A DNA stretch of 64,000 bases, taken from Thermoplasmatota archaeon (GTDB taxonomy: Archaea > Thermoplasmatota > Poseidoniia > Poseidoniales > Poseidoniaceae). Shown here piece after piece: positions 751 to 24,685 of the stretch. The first letter of the stretch is position 1. Each line of letters begins with the position of its first letter. The position numbers and the translations under genes were made by a program. The notes under the pieces were generated by a model, which saw nothing but the letters and a program-made list of their open reading frames with translations, was not told the DNA's origin and ran no database searches. Location: positions 3,202 through 67,201 of the forward strand of contig JAYXXD010000001.1 in the NCBI GenBank assembly GCA_036019775.1, in the 5' to 3' direction.

Positions 751-2895
751 ATGGGTTCAACTTGGTGGTTAAACATGGCTCATGATGGCGAAGAATATAC
801 TTCCAAACAGAGCCGCGTAGCTTGGTTGGCGGAACAAATCGCATATCATTCAGATTTGTATTACAACCAAGCAAGGACTGAGATTTCAGATGCTGAATTT
901 GATGCACTTTGGGATGAACTCAAGCAAGCCAATCCCGAGCATCCACAATTACAACGGGTTGGGGCGGAAATCGATCCAGGGACTGTTAAAGTCGATCATA
1001 TGTTTCCAATGCGTTCTCTAAACAAAGGAACAGATGACGGGGACATTGCTCATTTTGTGAGGGAATCTTCCCTTGAATCAACACGATTCATTTCTCAACC
1101 AAAACTCGACGGGTCAGCACTTTCACTTGAATACAGAAAAGGGCGCTTAGTTCGCGCAGCAACTCGCGGTAGTGGCGATAGGGGTGAAGACGTCACCAAG
1201 AATGCTCGGAAGGTCGAGAACGTACCACATACACTCGGTACAGAGGTCGATGTTCACATCCGTGGCGAGGTCGTGATGAGAAAGTCTGTGTTTGAAGAAA
1301 AGTATCGGAAGATTTCCCCAAATCCACGAAATCTCGCGGCAGGGGCACTTCGTCAGAAAAAAGCAGATGGAAAAGCAGAAGCAAGTGACTTGGTGTTTTT
1401 GGCATACGATGCCAAATTTCCGAACGAATCGCACCGACATCCAGATTCGCAAGCGCCACCCAATGACTCATTTGACAGCCGAATTCTTGAATGGTTGAGC
1501 AAAGTTGCAGGCGTTGAGCCAGCACCTTGGGTTGTTCATGATTCAGATACTGAAGCGACCTCTATTGCTTCTCTGTGTAATGAAACACAAACTTGGAGTG
1601 GAAAGCGAGAGGCGTATAGTTTTGAAATCGATGGGCTCGTCTTCAAAGTTGATGACCTGGAAAAGCGAGAGTTACTTGGTATGACAGCACATCACCCCCG
1701 CTGGGCTTTAGCTTGGAAGTTTCCTCCCGAGGAGGCAGACTCGGTCCTTCTCGATGTTGACTGGCAGACAGGCCGAACGGGTACGATTACACCTGTTGCG
1801 CGCATCGCACCTCAACGCGTAGGTGGCGTAACTGTGGAAAACACCACCTTGCATAACCTTGGAGAGGTTGAACGATTGGGTATTCAAATTGGCGATAAAG
1901 TTCGCATAGTGCGTCGTGGAGATGTAATTCCGAAGATTGAAGCGAGCCTTGGTCCAGCAACACAGCACGATCTCGATGGTCGGGTGCATGCGGATGGAGA
2001 ACCATTCCATAGTGAGTTGCCACAACGTCGGGCAATTACACCTCCGAATGTATGCCCTTCTTGCGAGGGGCCAGTTGAAATTGAAGGGGCATTCCTTCGC
2101 TGCACAGACGTTCAATGTACGGCACGACTGGGTCGAAGCCTCCTCTATTATTGCAGAGCATTAGAAATGGATGGAATCGGAGAGAAACTTGTCGAGCAAC
2201 TGATCGATGAAGGCCTCGTATCGAGTATTGCTGACTTGTATCGACTCGATATTCGCATGTTACTCTCACTTGATCGAATGGGGCAAAAGTCAGCAGAGAA
2301 AGTTCTCAATGAAATCAACAAGAGTCGTTCAATGACCTTCTCGAAGTACCTTAGTGCACTTGGTTTGCCAGGCATAGGTCCAGAACTTGCGACGGCAATC
2401 TCCAACCATTTCAAAGATCCAGATCAACTCCTAGGTTGGGCTAGAGAAAGCCTCGATGACGAATCAAGAATATCCGAATTGACAAGGATTGATGGAGTCG
2501 GTGAAATCGTTGCGCTCCAATTGCGAAATGGAGTACACCTTCGAAAGGCATTCATTACCGACCTTCTCTCTTTCTTGACAATCCAGCAAGAAGAGTTCGT
2601 AGACGCCGGAGGGCCACTCGAGGGTATGACCTTCTGTGTAACAGGTACACTTTCAGAATCGAGGAAGAGTATTCAAGCCCGAATCAAGGCTGGTGGCGGA
2701 AAGGTTGTAAGCAGCGTTTCTGGGAATTTATCCGTACTTGTGGCTGGAGAGAACGCAGGGTCTAAACTTGCGAAGGCGGAAAAACTGAATGTCCAAGTTT
2801 GGGATGAGAAAACTTTGCTACAACGATTGTCAGAAACGACTCTTTCCCCTGAAAACAAATCGTCTGCGACCCAACCAACACTGTTTGATTATTGA
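751..2895 (+). CDS. ligA: NAD-dependent DNA ligase (LigA family) with C-terminal BRCT-like region
   Basis: Adenylation motif KLDG in ISQPKLDGSALSLEYRKGRLVRAATRGSGDRGEDVT; N-terminal Ia-domain signature YHSDLYYNQARTEISDAEFD; zinc-finger cysteines CPSCEG...C..C; 714 aa. Confidence 0.9.
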   Translation: MGSTWWLNMAHDGEEYTSKQSRVAWLAEQIAYHSDLYYNQARTEISDAEFDALWDELKQANPEHPQLQRVGAEIDPGTVKVDHMFPMRSLNKGTDDGDIAHFVRESSLESTRFISQPKLDGSALSLEYRKGRLVRAATRGSGDRGEDVTKNARKVENVPHTLGTEVDVHIRGEVVMRKSVFEEKYRKISPNPRNLAAGALRQKKADGKAEASDLVFLAYDAKFPNESHRHPDSQAPPNDSFDSRILEWLSKVAGVEPAPWVVHDSDTEATSIASLCNETQTWSGKREAYSFEIDGLVFKVDDLEKRELLGMTAHHPRWALAWKFPPEEADSVLLDVDWQTGRTGTITPVARIAPQRVGGVTVENTTLHNLGEVERLGIQIGDKVRIVRRGDVIPKIEASLGPATQHDLDGRVHADGEPFHSELPQRRAITPPNVCPSCEGPVEIEGAFLRCTDVQCTARLGRSLLYYCRALEMDGIGEKLVEQLIDEGLVSSIADLYRLDIRMLLSLDRMGQKSAEKVLNEINKSRSMTFSKYLSALGLPGIGPELATAISNHFKDPDQLLGWARESLDDESRISELTRIDGVGEIVALQLRNGVHLRKAFITDLLSFLTIQQEEFVDAGGPLEGMTFCVTGTLSESRKSIQARIKAGGGKVVSSVSGNLSVLVAGENAGSKLAKAEKLNVQVWDEKTLLQRLSETTLSPENKSSATQPTLFDY

Positions 2896-2952: not shown

Positions 2953-5463
2953 ATGCAACTCAAAGCCGTTCTCCTTTCTGCTGTTGTTGCAATGGTCCTA
3001 CTCACACCTGTAATCGAAGCGAATTCAAGTGGTAAGCACTTCTCCTCAGTAGGCTGCGGCTGTCATGGAGGAAGCAGCCCTTCTGTTGCTATTTCTGAGA
3101 ATTTCCCATCGAGTTACACTGCTGGCCAAACATATTCAATTCAAGTTTCAGTATCTGGAGGTGTATCAGGTACACATGGGGGTTTCAATGTTGAAGTTGA
3201 CAAAGGATCACTTTCGACAGGAGGGAACTCGGGCGTCAAAGTAAGTGGCAAATCGATAACGCACTCGAACAAGGCGAATCGAGCATGGACTTTCGATTGG
3301 ACTGCTCCACCTTCTGGAAGCGGAACAGTATCGGTTGGAATAGCTGGATTGACAGCGAATGGCGCAAACGGAGATAATGGTGATGCTTGGTCCACCAAAT
3401 CCGTAACCATCACAGAAACGATTGTCGTATCCAACACTCCACCAACTGCATCTGATGTTCAAATTTCACCATCCAGTGCAACATCAAGCGATGACATTAC
3501 GCTCACCTACACATTTTCCGACCAAGACAGTGGTGATACTGAATCAGGGACGACAATCCATTGGTCATTCAATGGGACACATCAACCACAGTTTGACGGT
3601 ATGATGACAATTTCGAGTACATTTACCTCCAAAGGAGACAACTGGCAAGCATCGGTCACACCGAGTGATGGAGAAGACTTCGGCGCAACCGAGACTTCAA
3701 ACACAATCACGGTGTTGAACTCCCTTCCTACGATTTCTTCGGCCGCCATATCTCCATTGAATCCAACGTCGAACGATGACCTAATTGCGTCAAAAAGCGG
3801 TGATGTGGACAATGATGAAGATGCGCTTACTTTCGAGTATCGCTGGTATCTAAACGGCATTTTGCAAGACGGCTTGGATGATATTTCAGTCGTACCCTCG
3901 TTAGCGACACGGGCTGGCGATAGTTGGGAAGTCGAAGTCCGTGCTCATGATGGGGATGGCCACTCCTCATGGGTTCGTTCAAATCCCGTTTCCATTGTGG
4001 GAGATGAGTCAAACAATGCTCCAACGGTAGATAGTATCACGGTCTCACCTGCCAATCCGAAAACTCTTGACACACTTGTGGCCTTCTCCACCTCTTCCGA
4101 TGCAGATATGGATTCTATTGTTAACACACAATACCGATGGTTGAAAAACGATGTCTTGACCTTAATTACAACATCAACACTTGATTCAACGATGACGGCG
4201 AAAGGCGATCTTTGGGTAGTCGAAGTGCGAGTAAATGACGGCACGGAATGGTCAAATTGGACATCATCGCCAAATATCGAAATACTGAACTCTGCTCCTG
4301 TATTGGAATCAGCAAATATCAGCATTTCAGAAGCAACTACCAATCAAAATGTGACCGTGATGGCAACGATGAGCGACGTTGATGGAGACCAACAAACGAT
4401 GAGCGTAACATGGTACCTTGAGGGTGAAATACAACTGGAGTACAACAATCAAGCAACGCTTCCATCTTCTGCCACAAACAAAGGCGATTCGTGGACTGCT
4501 GTCGTACAAGCAAATGATGGTGAAGCAATGAGTTCTCAAAGCGAAACGCTTTCTGTGATCATACTTAACTCAGAACCACTTCTTTCTGTATCTCTTGATA
4601 ATGCAACTTCTCAAGACGACCTTTCCGTTCAGACAACTATCGCTGACATTGACGGTGATACCACTGAAGTTTCATCGATTACGTGGTTCAGAAATGGATT
4701 TAGAGAAAGCTCACTTGATGATGCAACAAACGTTCCGTCTTCGTATCTCGGTCCAGGTCAAATATGGAGTGTCGAAGTTGTTGTCACAGATGGGACGTCG
4801 ACAGTTAATTCAACAGCTACTATCGTTGTAGAAAATACACCTCCTCTTGCGAGGATTTCTGTACAGACAGATGCGCTTTATGCTGGTGAGCGAGTAATTC
4901 TATCAGGAATAACCTCAACCGATTCAGACAATTCCATTATCCGTTATCAATGGATTTGGATGAATGGAGCGTCCTCTGGAGATGAGACGTCGTTCCTGAT
5001 GCCAGCAAGCGGAACCGTTGAGGTATTTCTCACAGTTACCGATGAATCTGGAGCAACGAATTCAACCTCTATCACGATTGAACCCATCTCAGCTTTGTCT
5101 TGTCCAAATCTTACTCGAACGGTATCTGGTACCAACGTTCAACTCGATTGGACCTGGACATCCTCTGCTCCAGCATCGTTTGAAATTTCTCGAAATGGTG
5201 TGATCATCGGTATGACAAATGAGACAACCTTTAGTGACTCTCCAAATTTAGGTGGTAGTTCAAACTATGAGATCCAAACAATGCTCGGCGATCGGATTCT
5301 CGAATCTCCGTGTCAGTCCCCTTCAGTAAACGTCGATATTGATTCATTGACAATTGAGGTTGAGCAGGGGCCATCTTCCTTTGCAGGTCTAGGTTTGGGT
5401 TCAGTCTACATCATTATCGGAATCCTGTTATTTGGTGCGGCTCTATTTGGTAGAGGGGATTGA
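2953..5463 (+). CDS. Secreted surface protein with five tandem ~97-aa Ig/cadherin-like repeats and a C-terminal TM anchor
   Basis: Signal peptide MQLKAVLLSAVVAMVLLTPVIEA; CGCHGG motif near N-terminus; repeated D-rich modules (..DxDGD..W..NG..GDxWxVEV..DG..); C-terminal hydrophobic IIIGILLFGAALFG. Confidence 0.75.
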   Translation: MQLKAVLLSAVVAMVLLTPVIEANSSGKHFSSVGCGCHGGSSPSVAISENFPSSYTAGQTYSIQVSVSGGVSGTHGGFNVEVDKGSLSTGGNSGVKVSGKSITHSNKANRAWTFDWTAPPSGSGTVSVGIAGLTANGANGDNGDAWSTKSVTITETIVVSNTPPTASDVQISPSSATSSDDITLTYTFSDQDSGDTESGTTIHWSFNGTHQPQFDGMMTISSTFTSKGDNWQASVTPSDGEDFGATETSNTITVLNSLPTISSAAISPLNPTSNDDLIASKSGDVDNDEDALTFEYRWYLNGILQDGLDDISVVPSLATRAGDSWEVEVRAHDGDGHSSWVRSNPVSIVGDESNNAPTVDSITVSPANPKTLDTLVAFSTSSDADMDSIVNTQYRWLKNDVLTLITTSTLDSTMTAKGDLWVVEVRVNDGTEWSNWTSSPNIEILNSAPVLESANISISEATTNQNVTVMATMSDVDGDQQTMSVTWYLEGEIQLEYNNQATLPSSATNKGDSWTAVVQANDGEAMSSQSETLSVIILNSEPLLSVSLDNATSQDDLSVQTTIADIDGDTTEVSSITWFRNGFRESSLDDATNVPSSYLGPGQIWSVEVVVTDGTSTVNSTATIVVENTPPLARISVQTDALYAGERVILSGITSTDSDNSIIRYQWIWMNGASSGDETSFLMPASGTVEVFLTVTDESGATNSTSITIEPISALSCPNLTRTVSGTNVQLDWTWTSSAPASFEISRNGVIIGMTNETTFSDSPNLGGSSNYEIQTMLGDRILESPCQSPSVNVDIDSLTIEVEQGPSSFAGLGLGSVYIIIGILLFGAALFGRGD
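3420..4860 (+). repeat. Five tandem, diverged ~290-nt coding repeats (each ~97 aa) inside the surface-protein gene
   Basis: Protein-level periodicity: TPPTASD..., ISSAAISPLNPTSNDD..., ITVSPANPKTLD..., ANISISEATTNQN..., ATSQDDLSVQT..., each ending in a ..GDxWxVxV..DG..S module. Confidence 0.5.
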
Positions 5464-5465
5464 TT

Positions 5466-6422
5466 ATGAAACAGAAATTAATTCTCATACTTGCATTGTT
5501 ACTTATTATTCCGCTTCACGCTAGCGGGAATCCCGGTGGAGTCGGCAACGGGTTGGAAAACATGCAGTGCGGGGGAGCTTGTCACGGCGATGCCAATCAG
5601 AACGCTACGTCGAATTTACAACTCAATTTACAACCTTCTGGAACTGTTTGGGTTGGTCAACCTACTGAAATTACTGTCCAGATTTCAGGATTTGACACAT
5701 CACATGATGTTGATCAAATCGGAATTTTCCTTCTTTCCTCGACCAATGCTAACGGCGATATCCCAACAACCGATGGCTGGAGCATACTTTCCGATGGAAT
5801 GGGTGGCTCAAACAATTACATCGAGTTTGCACCCCCCGAATCGAACGTTCTTTCCCATTCCTGGATCCTTCGTGCCGATGAGATAGGAAAGAAATTGCTC
5901 TACGTATCGGTGCACCATGGGGACAATTCAGGAAACGATGCTGGAAGCCCCTTTTTTGGCGTTTCTGAAGCATTCGAAATTTCAGTTGAACCCATCCCTG
6001 AAAATCTACAAAGAATCAGTCCAGAATACGACCCACCGACATCAAGAGAGGTAGGTGAATCAACGACGTTGTGTCTCAAAACAATTGCAGCAAATAACGT
6101 TGTTATTGAATGGCGGGAGCCATCCGGAGAGTCGTATCAACTTGAGACCACACAAAACAACGGTTGCTGGGCCGCTGACCTACCGTCTGCATTAACCGCT
6201 TCCACAATCGAATGGAGAGCCATCCTAGATGGTGAAGGGCCACAACAAACTACACCCTGGTTCTCTCTTTCAAGTGTTGATCCAACGTGGGAAGCAGATG
6301 AAACAGCGCTGTTACTCCAATCGATTGCTCACGTGGTTCTCTTCTTTGGCTTGGTCATCCTCGTCCGAAAACCGAAACATCGAGAGGATGGGTTCAAAGA
6401 TTACATGGAGGAGAACATATGA
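5466..6422 (+). CDS. Secreted protein with N-terminal CGGACH (CX3CH) motif and C-terminal TM anchor
   Basis: ATG at 5466 follows the TTG at 5460; signal peptide MKQKLILILALLLIIPLHASG; motif MQCGGACHGD; C-terminal hydrophobic LLLQSIAHVVLFFGLVILV then basic RKPKHR. Confidence 0.65.
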   Translation: MKQKLILILALLLIIPLHASGNPGGVGNGLENMQCGGACHGDANQNATSNLQLNLQPSGTVWVGQPTEITVQISGFDTSHDVDQIGIFLLSSTNANGDIPTTDGWSILSDGMGGSNNYIEFAPPESNVLSHSWILRADEIGKKLLYVSVHHGDNSGNDAGSPFFGVSEAFEISVEPIPENLQRISPEYDPPTSREVGESTTLCLKTIAANNVVIEWREPSGESYQLETTQNNGCWAADLPSALTASTIEWRAILDGEGPQQTTPWFSLSSVDPTWEADETALLLQSIAHVVLFFGLVILVRKPKHREDGFKDYMEENI

Positions 6423-6970
6423 TTGAATCTGCCACGTTTCATGTGATAACGACAGAACTCGTTGTCGGGTCGTTTGCACTTGCAGGTTTATGTTTTGTCT
6501 TGCATTCGATTTTGTCGATTCAAAATAAAAACAGTCAATACCTTGCGATGATGGATTCAACGGCACATATGGCCTTATTGTTTGGCCTACTCGCATTACC
6601 GTTCGCAATATCTTCAGGCCTAGGATCGTCGCCAAGTGGAGCCCACACCTCTCCTCTTCTTGCCAACAAAATGTTACTTTCAACAGCAGGAGGAGGACTT
6701 GCTTTAGGCGTTTTATTCACGCGTTGGAAAATGGGTGGTGACATAAATTCGCACCACATTCACAATGCGTTTGGTTCCATTTCAACAGGTTGCATGCTCC
6801 TTACTGCATCGCTTGGAGGGACCTATACAAGGGCTGATTCACTCACAGAATTTTTGCCCTTCGTCAAAGAAACTACACTCCTACTTCCAGCATGGATGAG
6901 CATCCTCGTAATTCTGGTCATACTTGCTGCGTTAATTGTGCGACAGACATCAACCGTAAAGCATGGATGA
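6419..6970 (+). CDS. Integral membrane protein (4-5 predicted TM), unknown function
   Basis: ATGA overlap with the preceding stop; hydrophobic segments throughout the 183 aa. Confidence 0.5.
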   Translation: MIESATFHVITTELVVGSFALAGLCFVLHSILSIQNKNSQYLAMMDSTAHMALLFGLLALPFAISSGLGSSPSGAHTSPLLANKMLLSTAGGGLALGVLFTRWKMGGDINSHHIHNAFGSISTGCMLLTASLGGTYTRADSLTEFLPFVKETTLLLPAWMSILVILVILAALIVRQTSTVKHG

Positions 6971-7771
6971 CGGTGAAGGCGCCTCAGTAGGAGCTGCTTG
7001 GCTGAGCAGTGATTTTAGTTGTTCCTCAAGCAATTGCGCCTCTTCAAGTAGAGGTTGATCATCAAGATGTGTTGTTGGTAAAATAGCATTGAGTTTCTTG
7101 ACCAATGCAGCCGCAGCTCTCGCATCAGGGAATCGAGGGTCAGCCTCGACCATAACGCTCATGACATCGATGGCTCTTCTGCGAGCCTCACTGAGCAGAA
7201 CACCGTTGATACCGCGAATGACACCGCTGGTCAAGAGAGGCATCTCCATCTCTTTCAGCATATCACATACGTGGTCTGTTGCTCCAATGCCGAGCAAATC
7301 AATTCCATCTGTATCCTCATAATCAACAGTTGGCTCTTCGATACCTGAATTTCCACCAAGACCTTCCTTGGAAAAGGCATCGACCAAAATACCCATGCGA
7401 ATTTTCGAACCCTTTGACCAATCATACAAAGCCCATACAATATCGTGAACCAATGGGCTTGGAATAACAAGTTCGCTCATAAGCAAGATGATTTTATCAC
7501 ATCCTTCAATACTGCATTCAGGCTTCCCTGCATACGCTCGAATGATTGGCATTGGTTTCCCATCAGTGACCAGTGTCAATGGTGGTAGACGAGAGTCAAC
7601 AACTCCTCCAACAAATTCAAGATCCAGATTATCGATTAAATAATGCCCGACAACGCTTGATACCATTCCAACACTTGGAAAACAAGTAATGACAAGCGCA
7701 CCTTCGGTAATCACGTCTGCTCTAATTTTGACAAGGGTCCCTTCCATGACCACAACTTTGCAAGGAAGCAT
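6950..7771 (-). CDS. PAC2-family protein (proteasome assembly chaperone-like, COG1938)
   Basis: 273 aa; N-terminal GALVITCFPSVGMVSSVVGHYLID pattern typical of archaeal PAC2 proteins; paralogue at 23936-24685. Confidence 0.7.
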   Translation of the reverse strand: MLPCKVVVMEGTLVKIRADVITEGALVITCFPSVGMVSSVVGHYLIDNLDLEFVGGVVDSRLPPLTLVTDGKPMPIIRAYAGKPECSIEGCDKIILLMSELVIPSPLVHDIVWALYDWSKGSKIRMGILVDAFSKEGLGGNSGIEEPTVDYEDTDGIDLLGIGATDHVCDMLKEMEMPLLTSGVIRGINGVLLSEARRRAIDVMSVMVEADPRFPDARAAAALVKKLNAILPTTHLDDQPLLEEAQLLEEQLKSLLSQAAPTEAPSPSSMLYG

Positions 7772-7827
7772 TCAACACTTTCGGCTTCAAGCGTAGGTTT
7801 CATGTCCATCAAGGACCGGCATTGACC

Positions 7828-8982
7828 ATGGTCGAACAACGCATGCACAGCCTCTCGCCTTCTGCGTGGAATCGATACGAGACATGTCCCCGGATGTATT
7901 GGCTGAGCCGACAAGGCCTGCCCAAAAAGACTGGAATGGCTGCATCATTAGGAACTGCAGTTCATGCATCAATCGAAGATTTGCTGCAAATCGATCTCTC
8001 AGGACGTGAACCTGCAGAATCAAATTGGATTCGCTTCGAAGCAGATAAGTTGCTCAGGAATCGATGGGAAGAGGAAAAGCAAATTTTTCATGACACGCCA
8101 CGTCATCCAAACTGGAAAGAAGAGAAATACAAGGAAGCCCAAAAACAACAGAAGGGAGCAATCAATATGCTTCTCGATCATGTCGGAGTCCAGGGTTTGT
8201 CACATGAGCGAATTACTATCGCTTTATGGAAGAAAATACAATCGCTTGTGATCGCAGTCGAGGGCGAATTGGTGACAAAGGATGGCCGCTTGATGGGACG
8301 ATTGGATCTTCTACTCGCACATGTTGATGAATCTGGAAGCCTTACTGGCTGGCTTGTTGCTGATTTGAAGACCGGAAAACCACCACAAGGCAAACTCAAG
8401 CCTGAAGTCAATCGACAATTGAGGATGTATCGAGACATCCTTTTGTCAAATAATGAGAAAGCACCTCCAGTACAAGCACAGGGTTGGTATACAGATACAT
8501 CTTCAAAATGGGATGCAATTGGGGAAAACGTACTCGAGGCTGCATATGAGGCATGGAATGCCACGAAGCCAAGCGATACCCCTCTAAAGCCAACGCCAGG
8601 ACAGTCCTCTTGTGGAGGGTTTTGCGATTGGAAAGCTTGGTGCCCACATTGGTGGAATTGGCGGCATGAAAACAAAACGCTCCATAAGGGCGACTTTTCA
8701 GACGGGGTCGTGATTTTGCAACAGTATGACCAACAACGTTCAACAGCAATTGTTGAAGAATGCATACCGGAAAATGAGTTTGGCGGCGTTAAACCAACGG
8801 GGCAAATACGCAACGTCACCTTCGATGGACGAGGCAAAGAAGCCATCGAGAGTTTACTGGATGAGGGACATCAAGGGCCAATTTTCCTCGGGAGCGCAAT
8901 GATGAATCGTGAAGTTTGGCGTGTAGGACCGTGGTGCGATGTCTTACCATGGGCCCCTATTCTAGACTCAGGTAAGTCTTGA
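7828..8982 (+). CDS. Cas4/RecB-like PD-(D/E)XK nuclease with Fe-S cysteine cluster and an extra ~120-aa C-terminal domain
   Basis: Motifs CPRMYWL (first Cys), HASIEDLL, GRLDLLLAHVDE, ADLKTGK (D-x-K), QLRMY (QxxxY), CGGFCDWKAWCP; ATG at 7828 follows the TTG at 7822. Confidence 0.75.
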   Translation: MVEQRMHSLSPSAWNRYETCPRMYWLSRQGLPKKTGMAASLGTAVHASIEDLLQIDLSGREPAESNWIRFEADKLLRNRWEEEKQIFHDTPRHPNWKEEKYKEAQKQQKGAINMLLDHVGVQGLSHERITIALWKKIQSLVIAVEGELVTKDGRLMGRLDLLLAHVDESGSLTGWLVADLKTGKPPQGKLKPEVNRQLRMYRDILLSNNEKAPPVQAQGWYTDTSSKWDAIGENVLEAAYEAWNATKPSDTPLKPTPGQSSCGGFCDWKAWCPHWWNWRHENKTLHKGDFSDGVVILQQYDQQRSTAIVEECIPENEFGGVKPTGQIRNVTFDGRGKEAIESLLDEGHQGPIFLGSAMMNREVWRVGPWCDVLPWAPILDSGKS

Positions 8983-9772
8983 TTTCTTCAACGGCATGGT
9001 CGTCCTCAATACCATTTGGAGAGAGCAACCATTGAAGATAACGAGGATCGATTCCGGTTAATTCTTCCAGATGCCGTCCACGGTGGCGGCCAACTGCAAG
9101 AACCATGTGATCCCCGTCCCGGCGTACCATCCCATTCGGATCAACAACTTCCAAGTCATCGAGTTGTGGGCCGAGATCAGATTGAGCCTTAGCAGTTGAA
9201 CCAGTTGCACACCACTGTTCAACCTCTTCCAATGATTTACGAAAGTAACTTGGATGATCCAACCCCAATTTCCATAGAAGCAACAAGGATGCAGCAGCAT
9301 CTGCGGATGCCGTGTGGGCATTTTCTAAGGAAATGCCATGGCGATTGCACTGTGCTCCAAGGCGATGAGGTCGAGGTAATTTGAGTCTACGAACCATTTC
9401 GAGTGTATCGAGAACTGCCTTCGGTTCTGGAGGCAGAGCTCCGATTCGTAAGTATTCATTTCGTAACATCGCAAGGTCGAATTGGCGAACATTGTGGCCA
9501 ATGAGGACACAACCCTCGATTAACTCAGCAACACGATCTGCAATTTCTGCAAAATCAGGTTCTCCACGAACATCAGCATCCGATATCCCATGAATTCGCT
9601 GTGAGTCGTAAGGAATAGGTCGACGTGGATTGACCAATTGGTCATAGGAAATTTCTGAACCATCTGCATCAGAACCAATGAGGGCCAATTGAACTATTCG
9701 ATCTTTGGAGGTACTGATGCCTGTAGTTTCTAAATCGAAAGCGAGAACCCGTTCGCCTTCAAGCAGCTCCAT
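8957..9772 (-). CDS. DEDDh 3'-5' exonuclease (DnaQ/epsilon-like) fused to a DUF3820-like C-terminal domain
   Basis: Exo I LAFDLETTG, Exo II VLIGHNVRQFD, Exo III HTASADAAA; C-terminal GRHRGRHLEELTGIDPRYLQWLL resembles DUF3820; ATG at 9772 preferred over TTG at 9784. Confidence 0.75.
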   Translation of the reverse strand: MELLEGERVLAFDLETTGISTSKDRIVQLALIGSDADGSEISYDQLVNPRRPIPYDSQRIHGISDADVRGEPDFAEIADRVAELIEGCVLIGHNVRQFDLAMLRNEYLRIGALPPEPKAVLDTLEMVRRLKLPRPHRLGAQCNRHGISLENAHTASADAAASLLLLWKLGLDHPSYFRKSLEEVEQWCATGSTAKAQSDLGPQLDDLEVVDPNGMVRRDGDHMVLAVGRHRGRHLEELTGIDPRYLQWLLSPNGIEDDHAVEEIKTYLSLE

Positions 9773-9874
9773 GAAAACCCCCAATAAGATGCAATTGAAG
9801 AACTATCTCCTAAGCCACGTTGTTGACAGAATTGCTTCACTCAGTTTAATGAATGTCCCTTGATACGGAAGGGT

Positions 9875-10255
9875 ATGGGTTTCTTCCGACGCCTTTTTTC
9901 CAATCGCAAATCAACAACTGAAATGGAAGAGAATTCGGAAGATGATATGCTTTCTACACTCAAGGAGCAATATCAACGAGATATTGAACAAGATGTTTCA
10001 GCTATTGAATCGGTATTGGATTCCGATGAGGAACAACCAGAAATTGTTGAAGCTTTACCCGCTCCAGATTATGATAGCGAAAGAACTACGGTTGAAGAGG
10101 CGCTTCTTGACACAGAAATGGAAAATTTTTCCGAAAAAAATGTTATCGAACATAACTCGATTGAGGGCATTGGAAACCATCTGAAATCTGCAAGTATCGT
10201 TGGTGATATCCCATCAGAGGTATCCTTTGACCCGCCAAGCGAGACAACGCCCTGA
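9875..10255 (+). CDS. Small highly acidic, low-complexity (probably disordered) protein
   Basis: E/D/S-rich, 126 aa from ATG 9875; no motif. Confidence 0.4.
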   Translation: MGFFRRLFSNRKSTTEMEENSEDDMLSTLKEQYQRDIEQDVSAIESVLDSDEEQPEIVEALPAPDYDSERTTVEEALLDTEMENFSEKNVIEHNSIEGIGNHLKSASIVGDIPSEVSFDPPSETTP

Positions 10256-10318
10256 ATCGGTCAAATTTTACTCAGCACAACAACATGGTTAGATATAGGA
10301 CCGAATTGAGGGGAATTC

Positions 10319-11494
10319 ATGCAAGAGAAACTACTGCGGGCACGTGGCTTGTTTCTTGCTGCTGTTATGGTAACATTTTCACTTGCTGGATGTCTAGAGG
10401 CGTTGGATACAACGACCAAACCGCGAGCAACGCTTGAAGTGTATCCTCTTCTCATCCAAGAAGGTGAAATGGTCACGTTTGATGCACGGGAATCCGATGC
10501 TATAGAGGGAATAATCACCGCATATCGCTGGGATTTTGGTGATGGAGAGACCTCTGAAACCGTCACCGGTTTCACCTCACATATTTACGATATTTTTGGC
10601 GTTTATACCATTTCGCTTGAAGTCGAAAACGACCAAGGAGGAATCGACGAAGCATTTACTATCGTAACTGTCAATGGTGCTCCAACAATAGAACTCAACT
10701 ATCCCGATAATCCCCGAGCAGGTGACGCAGTACTCCTCGACGGTTCTTCCTCCAGCGATCCTGAGTCGGCTGAATTGTCCTTCCAATGGGATTTGGACTG
10801 GGGTGTGGATTCTGATGGAGATGGTGATGGCAGAAATGACATCGATTCCACTGATCCACAAACTCTCCTCCCAACTAATACGAGCGGGATTTACACCGGT
10901 TCATTGACCATCGATGACGGCCAAGGAGGAGTTGTTACAGAAGTGTTTGAAATTAATGTTTCAGCAAGACAATTCAACATCCAATGGAAGGAACGCGTCA
11001 TTGAAAAATCGTGGTCAGAATACCTCGATGAAGGAGATGAGTGGACAGAAGAAATCCTTCCCGGACAACAAGGAAGAATCCTTTCATTTGAAGCCACATT
11101 AGAACTCGAAGATGATATCATCCAGCCCTATGATAATTTTTCACTCATCATTTCAATACCAGAAGATGGTTTCAATGAGGAAGCTGAAACCGAGGGCGGT
11201 AACGTTACCCAATCCGAAAATGCGAAAGCGACAATAACAGCAAATGACCTCAATTCCAAAGGCCTCGATGAAGTCATTGAAGCTGACTCTGAAGCGGTCG
11301 TACTTCGGAAGATTCTTGGCCAGCCCGGCCAAAACTTTGGACAGGATTCTTGGAGGTTATTCGTCAAAGCATTACAGACAAATCCTGATTCGACAATAGA
11401 ATTTCTTCCTGACCCAGATCCAGGTAACGATTGGACTCTAACACTTCGAATAGTGATTCATGAACCAATCATTACTGAAATTTCATTTGAGTAA
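10319..11494 (+). CDS. Lipobox-containing secreted protein with PKD-like domains
   Basis: Signal peptide plus LAGC lipobox; PKD-like YRWDFGDGETSE...YTISLEVEND and a second copy LSFQWDLDWGVDSDGDGDG. Confidence 0.65.
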   Translation: MQEKLLRARGLFLAAVMVTFSLAGCLEALDTTTKPRATLEVYPLLIQEGEMVTFDARESDAIEGIITAYRWDFGDGETSETVTGFTSHIYDIFGVYTISLEVENDQGGIDEAFTIVTVNGAPTIELNYPDNPRAGDAVLLDGSSSSDPESAELSFQWDLDWGVDSDGDGDGRNDIDSTDPQTLLPTNTSGIYTGSLTIDDGQGGVVTEVFEINVSARQFNIQWKERVIEKSWSEYLDEGDEWTEEILPGQQGRILSFEATLELEDDIIQPYDNFSLIISIPEDGFNEEAETEGGNVTQSENAKATITANDLNSKGLDEVIEADSEAVVLRKILGQPGQNFGQDSWRLFVKALQTNPDSTIEFLPDPDPGNDWTLTLRIVIHEPIITEISFE

Positions 11495-11526
11495 GTCAAG
11501 ACGAAAAGGGTTTCAATGGTCAATGT

Positions 11527-11898
11527 ATGGGAGGGTTGAGTGGCATGGTTGAATCCGTTGAAATCAGTCGAGTCAATATCAGAGACACCCTCTCTGTTGA
11601 TCTTTCAGTATGGATGAATCACCCAGATGATATGGATTTCAGGCCATCGCTTTCTTGCAAGGATAAGATGTTCACCATCTCCTCCATCACTTCTGGAAAA
11701 GCACTCGCTAGTGTCGAATTGGATGATGAGCAAATGCAAGCCCTTGAAGCATCACTAACCGCTGAACTCCGAGTCAAATTCCAAGTCCATGGCATGCACG
11801 GCCGCTTGAACAAGATCGCTCCAATTATTGCGGATGGAAAAGCCAAGAAACTGGCTACTGCCAACTGGAAGACCGTTCAACCGGTCACAATGGAATAG
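11527..11898 (+). CDS. Hypothetical protein (123 aa)
   Basis: Clean ATG ORF; stop followed immediately by the GGGAATTCCC palindrome. Confidence 0.45.
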   Translation: MGGLSGMVESVEISRVNIRDTLSVDLSVWMNHPDDMDFRPSLSCKDKMFTISSITSGKALASVELDDEQMQALEASLTAELRVKFQVHGMHGRLNKIAPIIADGKAKKLATANWKTVQPVTME

Positions 11899-11947
11899 GG
11901 AATTCCCCCATTTGTTTCATAAGCGTAAACGCAAACATTTGCGTTTA
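11898..11947. promoter_or_regulatory. Intergenic region with a 10-bp perfect palindrome (GGGAATTCCC) and a 10-nt inverted repeat TAAACGCAAA-CA-TTTGCGTTTA abutting the next start codon
   Basis: Read directly from the sequence at ~11898-11907 and ~11926-11947. Confidence 0.45.
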
Positions 11948-12237
11948 TGTCCCCAAGAAGACTGGGCAAAGGTTCCCAGAAAAAGGCACGCTTTGAACGA
12001 CTGAAAGAAGAAATCATGCGGTTTGTGACAACAAACCCAGGGTGCTCAGCCCAATCGATTGTTGCGAATTTGTCCCATGATCGAACGATGCGAAATCATG
12101 GGCTGACTCCTCGAAAAGTTGGTTTCTTTATTCCAAGACATCTTGCAGATCGATTGACATGGTGGCAAGATCATCGTGCTGGACGCCGGGTGTACGGGTG
12201 TCTTCAAGCAAAAGATATTGGTTCAAAAAAAATTTGA
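11947..12237 (+). CDS. Small basic protein, possible winged-helix DNA-binding regulator
   Basis: 96 aa, K/R-rich; ATG overlapped by the upstream inverted repeat. Confidence 0.4.
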   Translation: MSPRRLGKGSQKKARFERLKEEIMRFVTTNPGCSAQSIVANLSHDRTMRNHGLTPRKVGFFIPRHLADRLTWWQDHRAGRRVYGCLQAKDIGSKKI

Positions 12238-12279
12238 TATTGCAATTCAATTAAATAACCATCGTTTGTATCATAATTT

Positions 12280-13125
12280 ATGCTTACAGGGACATCTTGG
12301 TACATTCTTTGGGTAGGATTTTGTTTTGCCGCTGCGGGTATCCTGGTTAACTTATTTATCAAAGACTTGTACAAAAAGAAGGACGACCACCAACTCTTTT
12401 CAAAGAACAATTTGGTGCTCCAGTTGTACATGATTATCGTATCGCTTTTTTTGGTTTTATTCGTTTTGAATTTATTAGGAGTCGCATTAGTTCTAATTCT
12501 TGAGCGAGGAGTAAGTGAAGGTTTTTTCATTCCTGCAGGGGAATGGGATCTCTCAATCTCAGAAAGTATAGTTTCAATATCATGTTGCGTTATTCTTGCT
12601 GCAATTTATTCATTGTCCGTTAGGGATGTTTTCACTATAAGCTCCAGAATAAGCCAAGTTAAATCATCGTTTTATCAAAACCAGTCCGCCAATAGAACAG
12701 GAATTGATTTGGAAGCAGCCGACCAAAACTCTCGAGAATCAACAGAATCTACTGGCCCGGTTACGTTAGATGACATTATCTCAGCCTTAGAATTTCAATT
12801 GAAACATGCCCGGCAAGATGCAGAAAATGCCAAGTCTGAGTTGCAAGAAACCCGTAAAAAAGTAGCTAGCTTGGAGGTTGAAATTGGACAAAAAGAAATT
12901 GAAATAAACAAGATATTGGCATCAAAATCGAATCTTGATCGGGTATTAGATGAACAAGACATTGGAGGAGATAGCTCGGGTAGAAAATCTCTTTCGATAC
13001 AGGATTCAGTCGTAGTTGGAGATACAATCTTTGGTGGGATAAAAATAGACAAATTGATTCTAAATGATGCTCAAGCCATTGCCGAAGCAATCATCCAACA
13101 CGATTGGGATAAAAGATCAGATTAG
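12280..13125 (+). CDS. Membrane protein (N-terminal TM helices) with a C-terminal coiled-coil region
   Basis: Hydrophobic N-terminal half; heptad-like charged segment LKHARQDAENAKSELQETRKKVASLEVEIGQKEIEINK. Confidence 0.5.
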   Translation: MLTGTSWYILWVGFCFAAAGILVNLFIKDLYKKKDDHQLFSKNNLVLQLYMIIVSLFLVLFVLNLLGVALVLILERGVSEGFFIPAGEWDLSISESIVSISCCVILAAIYSLSVRDVFTISSRISQVKSSFYQNQSANRTGIDLEAADQNSRESTESTGPVTLDDIISALEFQLKHARQDAENAKSELQETRKKVASLEVEIGQKEIEINKILASKSNLDRVLDEQDIGGDSSGRKSLSIQDSVVVGDTIFGGIKIDKLILNDAQAIAEAIIQHDWDKRSD

Positions 13126-13199
13126 ATGCGGCTCCGCAATTTTCACATGGCATGGTAGTGGAATCACACCAAGCATGTGGATATTTCGAATCTCGACAA

Positions 13200-13481
13200 T
13201 CATTCAGTTGCGACTGCTTCCCTTTCCTCACGCTTCTTACGATTTTGTCGCTTCTTGTACCATGGATAGATTGGCCACTTTGCTAAACCAGTCCACATGA
13301 CCAAGAATACAAAGGTGGTTGAAACGAACTTGTCTGTTTCTGCAGACCATGCAGTATCCATCCATCCGTACTCAACGTATGCAATTCTTGAATGATAAAC
13401 TACCAACATAATTCCTGCCAGCAAGTGTACATATCTCCAAATCTTGTTCCAATTTCGTGCCATTACCGTTGAATTATTCAT
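13200..13481 (-). CDS. Small membrane protein (2 TM), start uncertain
   Basis: ORF track start 13514 is a TTG; the first ATG gives MNNSTVMARNW...; hydrophobic helices present. Confidence 0.3.
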   Translation of the reverse strand: MNNSTVMARNWNKIWRYVHLLAGIMLVVYHSRIAYVEYGWMDTAWSAETDKFVSTTFVFLVMWTGLAKWPIYPWYKKRQNRKKREEREAVATE

Positions 13482-13542
13482 TTCAGTATATTTTGTTTCC
13501 TGCTGTAATTTCAATTTGCGATTTGGTTATAAAAATTCAAAC

Positions 13543-15708
13543 TTAATCGGAGAGCCTTTTTGCCATCTCTCGCCGAGTTTCTTCAGGATCGATGAACATA
13601 GCTCCGAAGATGACAACCGTTTCAAGCAATGCCGCGATAAAAAACAGCGTTGAATAATCAAATCTTGCAGCTAGGGGGGCCGTTAATTGGTACCCTATGA
13701 TTGCTGAGAGATTCATCATCGCCATGTATCCAGTGAATTGAGTCCCTCCAACCTCAGCCCATGTAATTCGCATCATGAGGGAATAAATATTGATCGATAC
13801 CATGGCCCAAACAAACGTCTGCAGGCTCCATACAGTCATCATAAACAGTCCATTGCTCCATAGAGATTCATTTATTCCCCAAATGACGGTAATGAGAGCG
13901 GTTGAAAACGCCGCACCGATGATGATTGCTTTGCCTCCAAACTGTTTTCCTAACTGGCCTCCAACCATGTAACCTAGCATTGTAACGATGAGAATTACGC
14001 CACCTTTGGTGGCATTGAATTGCTCCTCAGTCCATCCTAATTCTCGGACGAAAAGTAGAGGAAGAATAGGTATGAGGAAGTACGAGAGTGAGATAATCAA
14101 ACTCAATAAAACACCGAGTTGCGCTGAGCGAAACGAGAAGGCAATTTTGATATTGTCGAAAATGTCTTTGAAATTCTTTTGCTCAATCGCTTCCTGTTCA
14201 ACGATATTTTCAGAAGACTCACTCCATGGAAACAATTTCTCTCCAGGCCGTTCTGTCATGAATAATGGGACCAGCATGATGGCAACGAGGATTGGAATTT
14301 GCAGCACAATCGCTCCCTTTATTCCAACAAATCCGATGATGGTTCCCAAACCCGCCCCACCAATGATTCCTCCAACTGCTTTCGAAGTGAACATGTAACT
14401 GTTGACTTTCTCAAATTCGTGCGGTTCAAGGATATCGACAGCAAGCGCGTCAGTACTAACATCTTGTAGAGCAGTAAAGATGTTGTAAACGAGGAACATA
14501 ACTCCAACGAGCGTCACATTTGAGGACATGTTTGGGATCAACAACATAGAACTGAGAACAACAATCATTCCTGTTTGGGCGATTAAAATCCACGGTCTTC
14601 GCTTACCCATTTCTGGGAACTGATAGCGATCGATAATTGGACCCCATAGGAATTTTACCGACCAAGGGAGCGTTCCAAGCGTGAGCAAGAAAGCGAGTTG
14701 ACCCGCTGCTACACCTTCAACGGCCAAATAGGTCACGAAGGTCACTGTAATGAAACCCCATGGTATGCCCTGTGCAACATAAAGGGCACAGAGGGTCAAC
14801 ACTCGAGCACGATAACTTTCAACCAATGTCTTCCCTTCTTCGGCCGAAGATTGAGATTCATCAATGACTTCATCATCCTCGAGGATTACAGTGAGATGAT
14901 ACCGTTCTTTCTTAGTGAAAAGATAACCGACCAAAATGAGCATTCCGATAAACCAAGGGGAAAAAACGATGATGGAAATCGAACCGTTTCCAACTGCCAA
15001 GGAAGAAACATCATCACTTCCAATCAAATCAAGGTCGATGACCAATAGTGATATTGAGCTTGCAACATTCTCACCATTATCTGTGTGCGTGCAACTTCCT
15101 CCATCATAAGCGGCTGCTTCAACCATAATTTTGAAACTGTACGTTCCGAAGACGACTTCACCAAGATCGATTTGATTGAGAATTTCAGACTTTGACATTC
15201 CGGAGATGTTTTCCATCTCCAGTAAGGATTGGTTATGCCAAGTCAAGTTGAGAATGTGAGATCCTGGGTTGGAATCACTTTCTGTAAGTGTCCATGAATT
15301 TTTTGTTACAGTTCCGTAAATCACATCTGGAACATTATCTTCTAAACCCGTACAGAAACCAAAATTGGCAGATTCATCTTCATTAGGATAGTCAAGCACC
15401 ATTGAAATTCCAACAATAATTCCCCCAGCATTCTGAATTTCTTGTTCAACATCGTTCGATGTTAAATCCCAAACAACTTCTTCACCATCCGAATAATACT
15501 CGGACTTCGTTTCGAGTAAAATTTCAGTCCATTGAACATCAACCGAATACGTACCTGCTGCCGAATCAGTTTCGTTTCCACTAATGCAACCAGATAAAGG
15601 CAGAGCAAGTAAGGTGACAAGGATGAATGTCACCATGCGCTGCATGACTGGACCGTTTCCATCGCTTGTTTTGAATATTCGGGATTTCTGAACCGACGAC
15701 CTCATCAA
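13543..15708 (-). CDS. MFS permease (AmpG/PAT/folate-biopterin-transporter-like clade) fused to an N-terminal ~230-aa lipobox-anchored extracytoplasmic domain
   Basis: Motifs LWGPIIDRY and GKRRPWILIAQ typical of the AmpG/FBT clade; 12+ TM; N-terminal MQRMVTFILVTLLALPLSGC lipobox-type signal. Confidence 0.7.
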   Translation of the reverse strand: MMRSSVQKSRIFKTSDGNGPVMQRMVTFILVTLLALPLSGCISGNETDSAAGTYSVDVQWTEILLETKSEYYSDGEEVVWDLTSNDVEQEIQNAGGIIVGISMVLDYPNEDESANFGFCTGLEDNVPDVIYGTVTKNSWTLTESDSNPGSHILNLTWHNQSLLEMENISGMSKSEILNQIDLGEVVFGTYSFKIMVEAAAYDGGSCTHTDNGENVASSISLLVIDLDLIGSDDVSSLAVGNGSISIIVFSPWFIGMLILVGYLFTKKERYHLTVILEDDEVIDESQSSAEEGKTLVESYRARVLTLCALYVAQGIPWGFITVTFVTYLAVEGVAAGQLAFLLTLGTLPWSVKFLWGPIIDRYQFPEMGKRRPWILIAQTGMIVVLSSMLLIPNMSSNVTLVGVMFLVYNIFTALQDVSTDALAVDILEPHEFEKVNSYMFTSKAVGGIIGGAGLGTIIGFVGIKGAIVLQIPILVAIMLVPLFMTERPGEKLFPWSESSENIVEQEAIEQKNFKDIFDNIKIAFSFRSAQLGVLLSLIISLSYFLIPILPLLFVRELGWTEEQFNATKGGVILIVTMLGYMVGGQLGKQFGGKAIIIGAAFSTALITVIWGINESLWSNGLFMMTVWSLQTFVWAMVSINIYSLMMRITWAEVGGTQFTGYMAMMNLSAIIGYQLTAPLAARFDYSTLFFIAALLETVVIFGAMFIDPEETRREMAKRLSD

Positions 15709-23743: not shown

Positions 23744-23935
23744 TAATATCCTGGAGAGGAAGATCCTGAAAACGATGACGACATCTCAGTGGATGAATTT
23801 GGAACGGAATGGTATGAAGATGAAGTTGGGACTTGGTGGTTCCGCGAAGCCGGAGAACAAGACTGGTCCGAATACAATGAATGATCGCCGAGATATTTTT
23901 CAAACACTATACGACCAGCGATATGGGGTGTGAGC

Positions 23936-24685
23936 ATGAAGCAACAATTCGAGACGTATGACCTCGTTCTTCGTTCGGGAGTTGACCCGGCCACGAGTGG
24001 TGTCGCAATATGTGGATTCACCACAGCTGGAATGGTGGGAGTTATTGCGACATCCCACATCATCGAATCGCTCAATCTCACGCAGCTTGGAACAGTCATG
24101 GATGAGAATTTTCCAGCAGTTGCTTTAATTCAGAATGAAATTCCTCGCCACCCGGTCCGTGTCTATCAGGGTGATGGTATTGGTGTTTTTACCGCAGAAA
24201 TTCAATTTGATAAAGAACAAGATATCGCTTTTGGCTCAACAGTCCTCGAATGGTTCAATGCAGGCGGTTTCGATCAATTGATAATTATCGATGGTATTCT
24301 GAAGCCAGAAAAACAGATTCAGGGTGAAGGCTTGTTTGCTGTCGGAGCCAATGATGTTGCACGTGCTCGCCTAAAATCCCTCGATTTGCAAACGATTCAA
24401 CGAGGGGTTGTTTCAGGAATTACAGGATTTTTGCTGAGTGAAGGCGATCGCCTCAATCTCGACATCACCGCTTTACTCTCTGAGGCGAGCCCGATGTATC
24501 CGGATGTTCGAGCGGCTGCTGTTGCTATCGAAGCAATCACAGAGATGACGGGCAAAGAAATTCCACTCTCAAAGATGCTCGAAAATGCCCGTAGTATCGA
24601 GCAATCGGTTCAAGAAATCATTGAAAGCGCTACGCCGCTTTTGCCCTCGCCAGATGAAGATTTAAACGACCCATCATTCGGTTGA
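23936..24685 (+). CDS. PAC2-family protein (second paralogue)
   Basis: GVAICGFTTAGMVGVIATSHIIESL pattern parallels the 6950-7771 protein; ATG at 23936 after GTG 23930. Confidence 0.7.
   Translation: MKQQFETYDLVLRSGVDPATSGVAICGFTTAGMVGVIATSHIIESLNLTQLGTVMDENFPAVALIQNEIPRHPVRVYQGDGIGVFTAEIQFDKEQDIAFGSTVLEWFNAGGFDQLIIIDGILKPEKQIQGEGLFAVGANDVARARLKSLDLQTIQRGVVSGITGFLLSEGDRLNLDITALLSEASPMYPDVRAAAVAIEAITEMTGKEIPLSKMLENARSIEQSVQEIIESATPLLPSPDEDLNDPSFG

Follow-up and report, generated by a model that had tools for sequence, protein, structure and literature searches.

Among the nucleases of the PD-(D/E)XK superfamily, Cas4, AddB and Dna2 possess a four-cysteine cluster by which the N-terminal helix is pinned to the C-terminal portion of the nuclease domain and, because the cluster closes the domain, single-stranded DNA (ssDNA) has to thread in from a free end. 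In Dna2, the iron–sulphur (Fe–S) nuclease is paired with OB/beta-barrel domains that handle ssDNA. Here, we describe a relative of these enzymes encoded by a 64,000 nucleotide stretch of DNA (the window) from a Thermoplasmatota archaeon of the Poseidoniaceae (order Poseidoniales; GenBank assembly GCA_036019775.1, contig JAYXXD010000001.1, positions 3,202 to 67,201 of the forward strand). ORF A (7822..8982, + strand, 386 amino acids) encodes a predicted stand-alone Fe–S PD-(D/E)XK nuclease with a C-terminal OB-like domain, and converges on ORF B (8957..9784, − strand, 275 amino acids), which encodes a predicted DEDDh 3′–5′ exonuclease with an ExoX-like C-terminal tail. On balance, we favour the view that both proteins are housekeeping nucleases, encoded on the chromosome and inherited vertically in the Poseidoniia (Marine Group II archaea and their relatives), with DNA repair or the processing of replication intermediates as the likeliest role. 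This view derives from the presence of A relatives in several hundred genomes, the narrowness of the A family, the lack of viral relatives, the nearby LigA, PAC2 and MCM genes and the retention of the gene block in which the pair lies.

The nuclease domain of A occupies residues 10–275 (7849..8646, +) and matches the full length of the Pfam PDDEXK_1 model (PF12705, model positions 1–247 of 247; E 4e-21, 76.4 bits against a cutoff of 22). Across 22 orthologues, residues C22, H48, E52, D162, D181, K183, Q199, Y203, C264, C268 and C274 are invariant. The catalytic motifs (8305..8430, +) are formed by D162 (within GRLDLL), D181-L-K183 (VADLKTG) and Q199...Y203 (QLRMY), whilst the cysteines predicted to bind a 4Fe–4S cluster are C22 on the N-terminal side (7885..7887, +) and the C-terminal triad C264-x3-C268-x5-C274 (8611..8643, +). 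In distant members of the family, including P0121 and P0126, the triad has the canonical CxxCx5C spacing. A conforms, therefore, to the pattern of one N-terminal cysteine plus a C-terminal triad that marks the Fe–S subgroup of Cas4, AddB, Dna2 and Exo5, with the cluster itself being predicted. A first-pass annotation of the window, made by a model from the sequence, had credited A with all the RecB/Cas4 nuclease motifs and a cysteine cluster, and both the PF12705 score and the invariance of these residues bear this out.

The nearest solved structures to A by sequence are the nuclease domains of the mycobacterial AdnA and AdnB proteins. In a profile of 12 family members, the segments GRLDLL...VADLKTG...QLRLY align to GRLDRL...VVDLKTGK...QLAMYQ in AdnA, placing D181 of A on the catalytic AdnA D934, the residue that is mutated to alanine in entries 9np6 and 6ppj. 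An AlphaFold2 model of full-length A (pLDDT 86, pTM 0.77) was compared with the Protein Data Bank (PDB) using Foldseek, yielding matches to AdnA (2e-7), AddB (1.7e-6), ACE1 (2e-5), Dna2 (4e-5) and Cas4 (1e-3), as well as to MGME1. Against a viral structure library, the same model matches phage proteins described as 'COG2887 RecB family exonucleases' (8.5e-10), and the phage family phrog_69 ('exonuclease') spans residues 1–277 of A (E 4e-21). AdnA/AdnB and the AddB subunit of Bacillus AddAB share with A the GRLD...(V/A)DLKTG...QLxxY motifs and the arrangement of one N-terminal and three C-terminal cysteines. Unlike AddB, AdnA and RecB, however, A has neither a helicase (or helicase-like) domain nor a partner subunit, and carries a C-terminal OB-like barrel instead; no helicase domain was seen in the 386 amino acids of A in a Pfam scan. 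Taken on its sequence and modelled fold, A is a predicted stand-alone Fe–S PD-(D/E)XK nuclease of the pfam12705 'Cas4-like' group, with both Fe–S binding and activity being predictions. In the mechanism that we propose, the one N-terminal and three C-terminal cysteines would hold a 4Fe–4S cluster, closing the domain around D162, D181-x-K183, Q199 and Y203. By analogy with Cas4, AddB and Dna2, A may then cut 5′-ended ssDNA with a free end, in the form of 5′ overhangs or flaps.

Beyond the Fe–S motif, A extends for a further 100–110 amino acids or so (residues ~284–386). The first-pass annotation had noted this extension, albeit at a length of ~120 amino acids, and had described its fold as unknown. 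As far as sequence relatives are concerned this description holds: Pfam gave no match to the tail, whether taken by itself or in 20 diverse members of the family, a profile of the tail found no relative among PDB sequences, and a full-sensitivity HMMER search through 1.84 billion representative proteins returned, for this region, only fragments of the family itself (P0212, P0218, P0222). The fold, on the other hand, can now be predicted. Residues ~290–379 (8689..8958, +) are modelled with good confidence by AlphaFold2 as a barrel of topology beta1-beta2-beta3-alpha-beta4-beta5(-beta6), which is the order found in OB folds, and the same topology is seen in the full-length model and in the domain modelled alone (pLDDT 88.8). 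OB-fold proteins dominate the Foldseek matches listed from the PDB, the top ones being HIN-200 domains, Teb1 OB-B, Mycoplasma SSB, SilF and editosome OB proteins; these best-scoring matches are all OB-type barrels but are weak (best E 1.8e-3, TM 0.48–0.53). The tail is therefore probably an OB-like barrel and, as modelled, represents a small barrel domain that was previously undescribed and is without sequence relatives outside the family. The residues retained across the family are chiefly glycines and hydrophobics, together with a near-terminal motif, GDW(C/S)(D/E)(V/I)LPWxP. Tails of 86–155 amino acids also follow the cysteine triad in the distant PF12705 proteins P0210, P0213, P0217, P0219, P0221, P0229, P0230 and P0233. 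No signal of homology between these tails and the OB domain of A was found by hmmsearch or hhalign, and P0219 is the sole protein amongst them with a (weak) match to the OB model PF01336.

The combination of an Fe–S nuclease with an OB-like domain invites comparison with Dna2. Amongst the PDB matches to A, Dna2 gives the highest query TM (0.44) and the longest alignment (406–424 columns), but A lacks the SF1B helicase and the rmsd of 16–18 Å means that a shared domain arrangement is not established. Nor is A matched by the Pfam Dna2 model PF08696. The resemblance between A and Dna2 is thus one of logic, not of membership, and A is best regarded as a lineage-specific variant, with nuclease and OB-like domains, of a well-known nuclease family. 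Within the proposed mechanism, the OB-like barrel could offer a further point of contact with ssDNA, or with another protein, and might in this way stand in for the helicase motor that accompanies the nuclease domain in AddB, AdnA and Dna2.

The product of the convergent ORF B possesses a DEDDh (RNase_T/DnaQ-like) domain at residues 15–169 (9278..9742, −; PF00929, E 1.6e-28, 100.7 bits against a cutoff of 24), with the complete DEDDh set of D17, E19, D103, H157 and D162 invariant in the 13 sequences aligned. Its top sequence matches in the PDB are the exonuclease domains of PolC and DinG, and the phage family phrog_192 spans residues 11–273 (E 6e-47). The first-pass annotation was right to identify B as a DnaQ-like exonuclease with a tail of bacterial type, a type also seen in phages, but the assignment of that tail to DUF3820 fails, as PF12843 has no match to B at E ≤ 1. 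Instead, the tail (residues 185–275; 8960..9232, −) contains a putative ExoX-like_C motif, 'VGRHRGRHLEEL..DPRYLQWLL', at residues 232–254 (9023..9091, −). The match to the corresponding model, PF20600, is weak and below threshold in B itself (18 bits against a cutoff of 26.5), and PF20600 is on record for many B orthologues of 58–64% identity. The ExoX equivalog model NF005937 aligns to residues 222–256 with 34.1 bits, far below its cutoff of 202. B resembles E. coli ExoX and the phage DnaQ-like exonucleases of phrog_192 in that its DEDDh domain precedes a tail that is probably of the ExoX-like_C type, whereas the sub-cutoff NF005937 score, a longer linker and the absence of the tail in some Poseidoniia set it apart from ExoX, of which it is not an orthologue. 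From its sequence, B appears to be a DEDDh exonuclease of an ordinary kind, ExoX-like or phage-like, with predicted activity. As an ExoX-like 3′–5′ exonuclease, it would supply the polarity opposite to that suggested for A, removing 3′ ends.

The distribution of A points to vertical inheritance within a single archaeal group. In a survey of one genome per species, 402 species genomes were found to hold an A relative, and the best 80 matches all lie on Poseidoniales-type contigs. Homologues of A belong to Candidatus Poseidoniales/Poseidoniaceae (Marine Group II), with remoter members in the Thalassarchaeaceae and in other Thermoplasmatota metagenome-assembled genomes (MAGs); the archaeal host given by the first-pass annotation is therefore correct, being a member of the Poseidoniales. 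The family is narrow, with 119 matches at E ≤ 1e-3, mostly fragments, in the HMMER search of representative proteins mentioned above. Beyond it, identity falls to 25–35% and generic PF12705 proteins align in the nuclease domain only. Of the closest relatives outside the Poseidoniia, a single one bears an organism label, 'bacterium'. Amongst orthologues of A and of B, identity is high (60–90%). No relatives of A were found in the viral contigs of IMG/VR, and a viral origin for the gene was dropped on this basis. Three of the loci recovered (L006, L007 and L038) are filed as bacterial MAGs (Rhodobiaceae, Salipiger bermudensis and Verrucomicrobiales, respectively); the PAC2-A-B block in these is 64–88% identical to that of Poseidoniaceae and the contigs have, judging by this identity, probably been mis-binned.

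Several observations bear on whether A might belong to a CRISPR–Cas system. With Cas4 (PF01930/TIGR00372), including solo-Cas4 proteins, A shares membership of the PD-(D/E)XK superfamily, an Fe–S cysteine set and a stand-alone architecture. The label 'Cas4-like' that was first given to it is valid at the level of the broad superfamily but does not extend to Cas4 proper: the TIGR00372 model reaches 17.7 bits against a cutoff of 65, across residues 12–55 only, and PF01930 has no match at E ≤ 1. In comparison with typical Cas4, the nuclease domain of A (~280 amino acids) is ~80 amino acids longer, there is an additional OB-like domain and there are no cas neighbours. A thus appears from its sequence to be Cas4-like in the broad sense only. 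The pfam12705 'Cas4-like' group has been reported not to be CRISPR-associated (Hudaiberdiev et al. 2017, PMC5704561), and A is similar to this group, which includes many phage exonucleases, in lying outside CRISPR loci. The first-pass annotation found no CRISPR–cas context and the present analysis concurs, with no tandem repeats or CRISPR array in the 64-kb window, no cas-family or defence genes in Pfam scans that took in 41 ORFs of the window (two small ones and 39 with a length of 150 amino acids or more), and no cas genes or arrays in the orthologous 20-kb loci for which gene tables were read. There were also no Rfam matches in the window. Could A nevertheless be a true Cas4 that serves a CRISPR–Cas adaptation module located elsewhere in the genome? 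The common superfamily, motifs and four-cysteine set would agree with this, as would the weak and partial matches to the TIGR00372 and PADLOC Cas4 models, but with scores so far under the Cas4 cutoffs, a longer nuclease domain joined to an OB domain, published precedent for pfam12705-type proteins outside CRISPR and no cas genes or arrays in the window or in the loci read, we consider it extremely improbable.

A related possibility is that the two nucleases act as a pair in defence against viruses or plasmids, in the manner of the Cas4-family nucleases that assist Argonaute (ACE1) or of the Cas4 and DEDDh enzymes that trim prespacers. In addition to the Foldseek matches of A to ACE1 and Cas4, the defence-system models of PADLOC include some that match the pair: A gives weak matches to DruK (30 bits) and to Cas4 models, and B matches PDC-S48 (2.5e-41, profile positions 9–170 of 411) and a CRISPR-associated DEDDh model (4.9e-35). 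These PADLOC matches, like those from Foldseek, are however confined to generic catalytic domains, and the partner genes of the systems concerned are absent from the window, which contains no Argonaute and no cas1 or cas2 as well as no array. Furthermore, the pair occupies a fixed position among housekeeping genes, has relatives throughout the 402 species genomes, is not represented by any viral or mobile copies found, and shows the level of identity that core genes would show. A defence role is in our view quite unlikely, if less so than service as a true Cas4. Both roles are disfavoured for the same reasons, namely the fixed housekeeping locus, vertical inheritance, scores that fall short in the family models and the absence of partner genes. 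Rather than being the common archaeal solo-Cas4 with no conserved partner, A is a lineage-specific protein with a conserved neighbour.

That A and B are genuine genes is indicated by the existence of hundreds of orthologues at 33–93% identity. Both ORFs were reported in the first-pass annotation and the ORF list places them as described, in convergent orientation. The sequence shows that their 3′ ends share 26 nt (8957..8982), a tail-to-tail overlap that is not conserved, as tblastn match ends elsewhere lie mostly between 19 nt overlapping and 89 nt apart. Comparison with the N-termini of orthologues suggests that the true starts are probably the ATG at 7828 for A (giving 384 amino acids) and the ATG at 9772 for B (271 amino acids). 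An antisense ORF of 222 amino acids (8178..8846) lies entirely within the conserved coding frame of A.

Co-occurrence of the two genes across related genomes, raised in the first-pass annotation, is indeed observed, but as part of a larger block with the order LigA...PAC2-A-B-PKD-o123. The block begins with a bacterial-type NAD-dependent DNA ligase identified by Pfam (LigA; 751..2895, +), continues with a PAC2-family gene (6950..7771, −; PF09754, E 6e-29) that is divergent from A, with ~56 nt between the start codons, and includes downstream a PKD surface protein and a conserved 123 amino acid ORF (o123; 11527–11898). PAC2 precedes A in every one of 84 loci tested and, of five loci added later, in all four with upstream sequence, whilst 39 of the 40 loci with enough flanking sequence have LigA, the PKD protein and two small ORFs. 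LigA is located 1–7 kb upstream of PAC2-A-B across the lineages examined, and adjoins PAC2 in L033, L087 and L088. B was found in the fetched flank in 80 of the 81 loci with room for it. In 74 of these 81 the tblastn match ends of A and B overlap or are less than 100 nt apart, with five more showing a gap of ~230–420 nt. In the deepest comparisons (L086, on a 3.0-Mb contig, plus L087 and L088), A is only 33–40% identical, yet the LigA-PAC2-A-B-PKD-o123 order is kept even though the outer flanks differ. The adjacency of A and B thus appears to be an ancient, inherited synteny. Since the block comprises six genes with a mixture of functions, however, and PAC2 and LigA are equally well conserved beside A, this adjacency alone does not demonstrate a partnership.

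A rival interpretation of the block is that A, B and LigA constitute a dedicated end-processing or gap-repair module, in which 5′ ssDNA or flaps would be trimmed by A and 3′ ends by B, leaving LigA to seal the nick; the neighbourhood would then reflect cooperation between the three, and A and B may bind one another physically. The three activities are complementary, the linkage of LigA to A and B extends from Poseidoniaceae to the lineages with the most divergent A proteins in spite of their differing outer flanks, and the two nuclease genes are close together in almost all loci. Against this, PAC2, the PKD surface protein and the uncharacterised ORFs of the block are just as well conserved, convergent genes make no operon, and A and B have become separated in L063 and L068. 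We regard such a module as possible but doubtful. Going further still, A could be a helicase-independent nuclease of the Dna2/Exo5 type acting at 5′ flaps or 5′ ends, which together with B and LigA makes up an end-processing and ligation pathway specific to Poseidoniia that replaces part of the canonical archaeal machinery (solo-Cas4, NurA–HerA or similar). This proposal is unlikely as a whole, more so than the module on which it builds.

Returning to the housekeeping interpretation, there are a number of points that weigh against it or against the functional detail attached to it. The OB assignment is a prediction, with every Foldseek E value above 1e-3 and TM at ~0.5. In addition, the tail (window 8671–8979, residues 284–386) is acidic, with a pI of 4.9 and 15 aspartate and glutamate residues to 10 lysines and arginines, compared with a near-neutral nuclease domain (pI 7.8). 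Such acidity is unusual for a DNA-binding OB domain and a protein-interaction role fits at least equally well. The tail of B seems from the orthologue sequences to be dispensable in some lineages, since the B orthologues in the deep lineages L087 and L088 are 190–195 amino acids long and lack it. A and B are convergent and so cannot be co-transcribed. Their linkage has also been lost on occasion: in L068, A and B are separated by an insertion of 4.3 kb that consists of small genes (one for a GAF domain protein, one for a zinc ribbon protein and others; 11143–15491) and in L063, synteny breaks directly after A, with B not being found within 10 kb. Finally, the presence of PAC2, a PKD surface protein and uncharacterised ORFs in the block means that the synteny points to no particular function. 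As regards L063, replacement of B by another exonuclease was ruled out: A is followed there (10001–13404) by a 747 amino acid TSP_3-repeat protein and then by GlutR, indicating a plain break in synteny. The first-pass annotation considered the roles of both nucleases to be unclear and we agree, their functions being inferred. Literature searches on Poseidoniales DNA repair and CRISPR, the ExoX C-terminal domain and DUF3820 returned nothing specific to either protein.

The Marine Group II archaea are uncultured and very abundant in the ocean. Their DNA-maintenance toolkit looks mixed, with an archaeal component (MCM) alongside bacterial-type genes (LigA, an AddAB-like pair and an ExoX-like exonuclease). 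The catalytic families to which A and B belong are well known the role suggested for the pair is inferred, and the present analysis overturns nothing in current understanding. What A does offer is a concrete candidate for biochemistry, as a core, clade-specific protein with a predicted Fe–S nuclease domain and an OB-like domain, in which the nuclease would work without its usual helicase partner.

The AddAB-like pair lies further along the window and resembles AddAB/AdnAB. The first protein (40777–44496, +; 1239 amino acids) has a PDDEXK_1 domain with a C...CxxCx5C set, and the second (44493–49466, +; 1657 amino acids) has a UvrD-type helicase followed by a C-terminal PDDEXK_1 domain. The two look like a bacterial-type helicase–nuclease in an archaeon, and neither is a close paralogue of A; the idea that A arose as a duplicate of these genes was rejected on BLASTP E values above 1. 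Other genes in the window encode the PKD protein, an MFS transporter, a HAD protein, MCM, a GatE-like protein and further housekeeping functions.

Between LigA and PAC2, the window contains three to four genes (2953–6970, +) for large secreted, PKD-like and membrane proteins. These are missing at that site in L033, L087 and L088, with L086 having one unrelated gene there, and on this comparison they appear to have been inserted into the conserved block in particular lineages. On the other side of the nuclease pair, and divergent from B, is a very acidic 131 amino acid ORF (9860–10255, +) with no Pfam match, which tblastn recovers from only 15 of 40 loci. Both L087 and L088, where B is also without its tail, lack this ORF, the numbers being too small for a correlation. 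Lastly, a second PAC2 paralogue is encoded at 23930–24685 (+), ~16 kb from the first, and in L088 a second PAC2 gene is located ~5 kb downstream of A.

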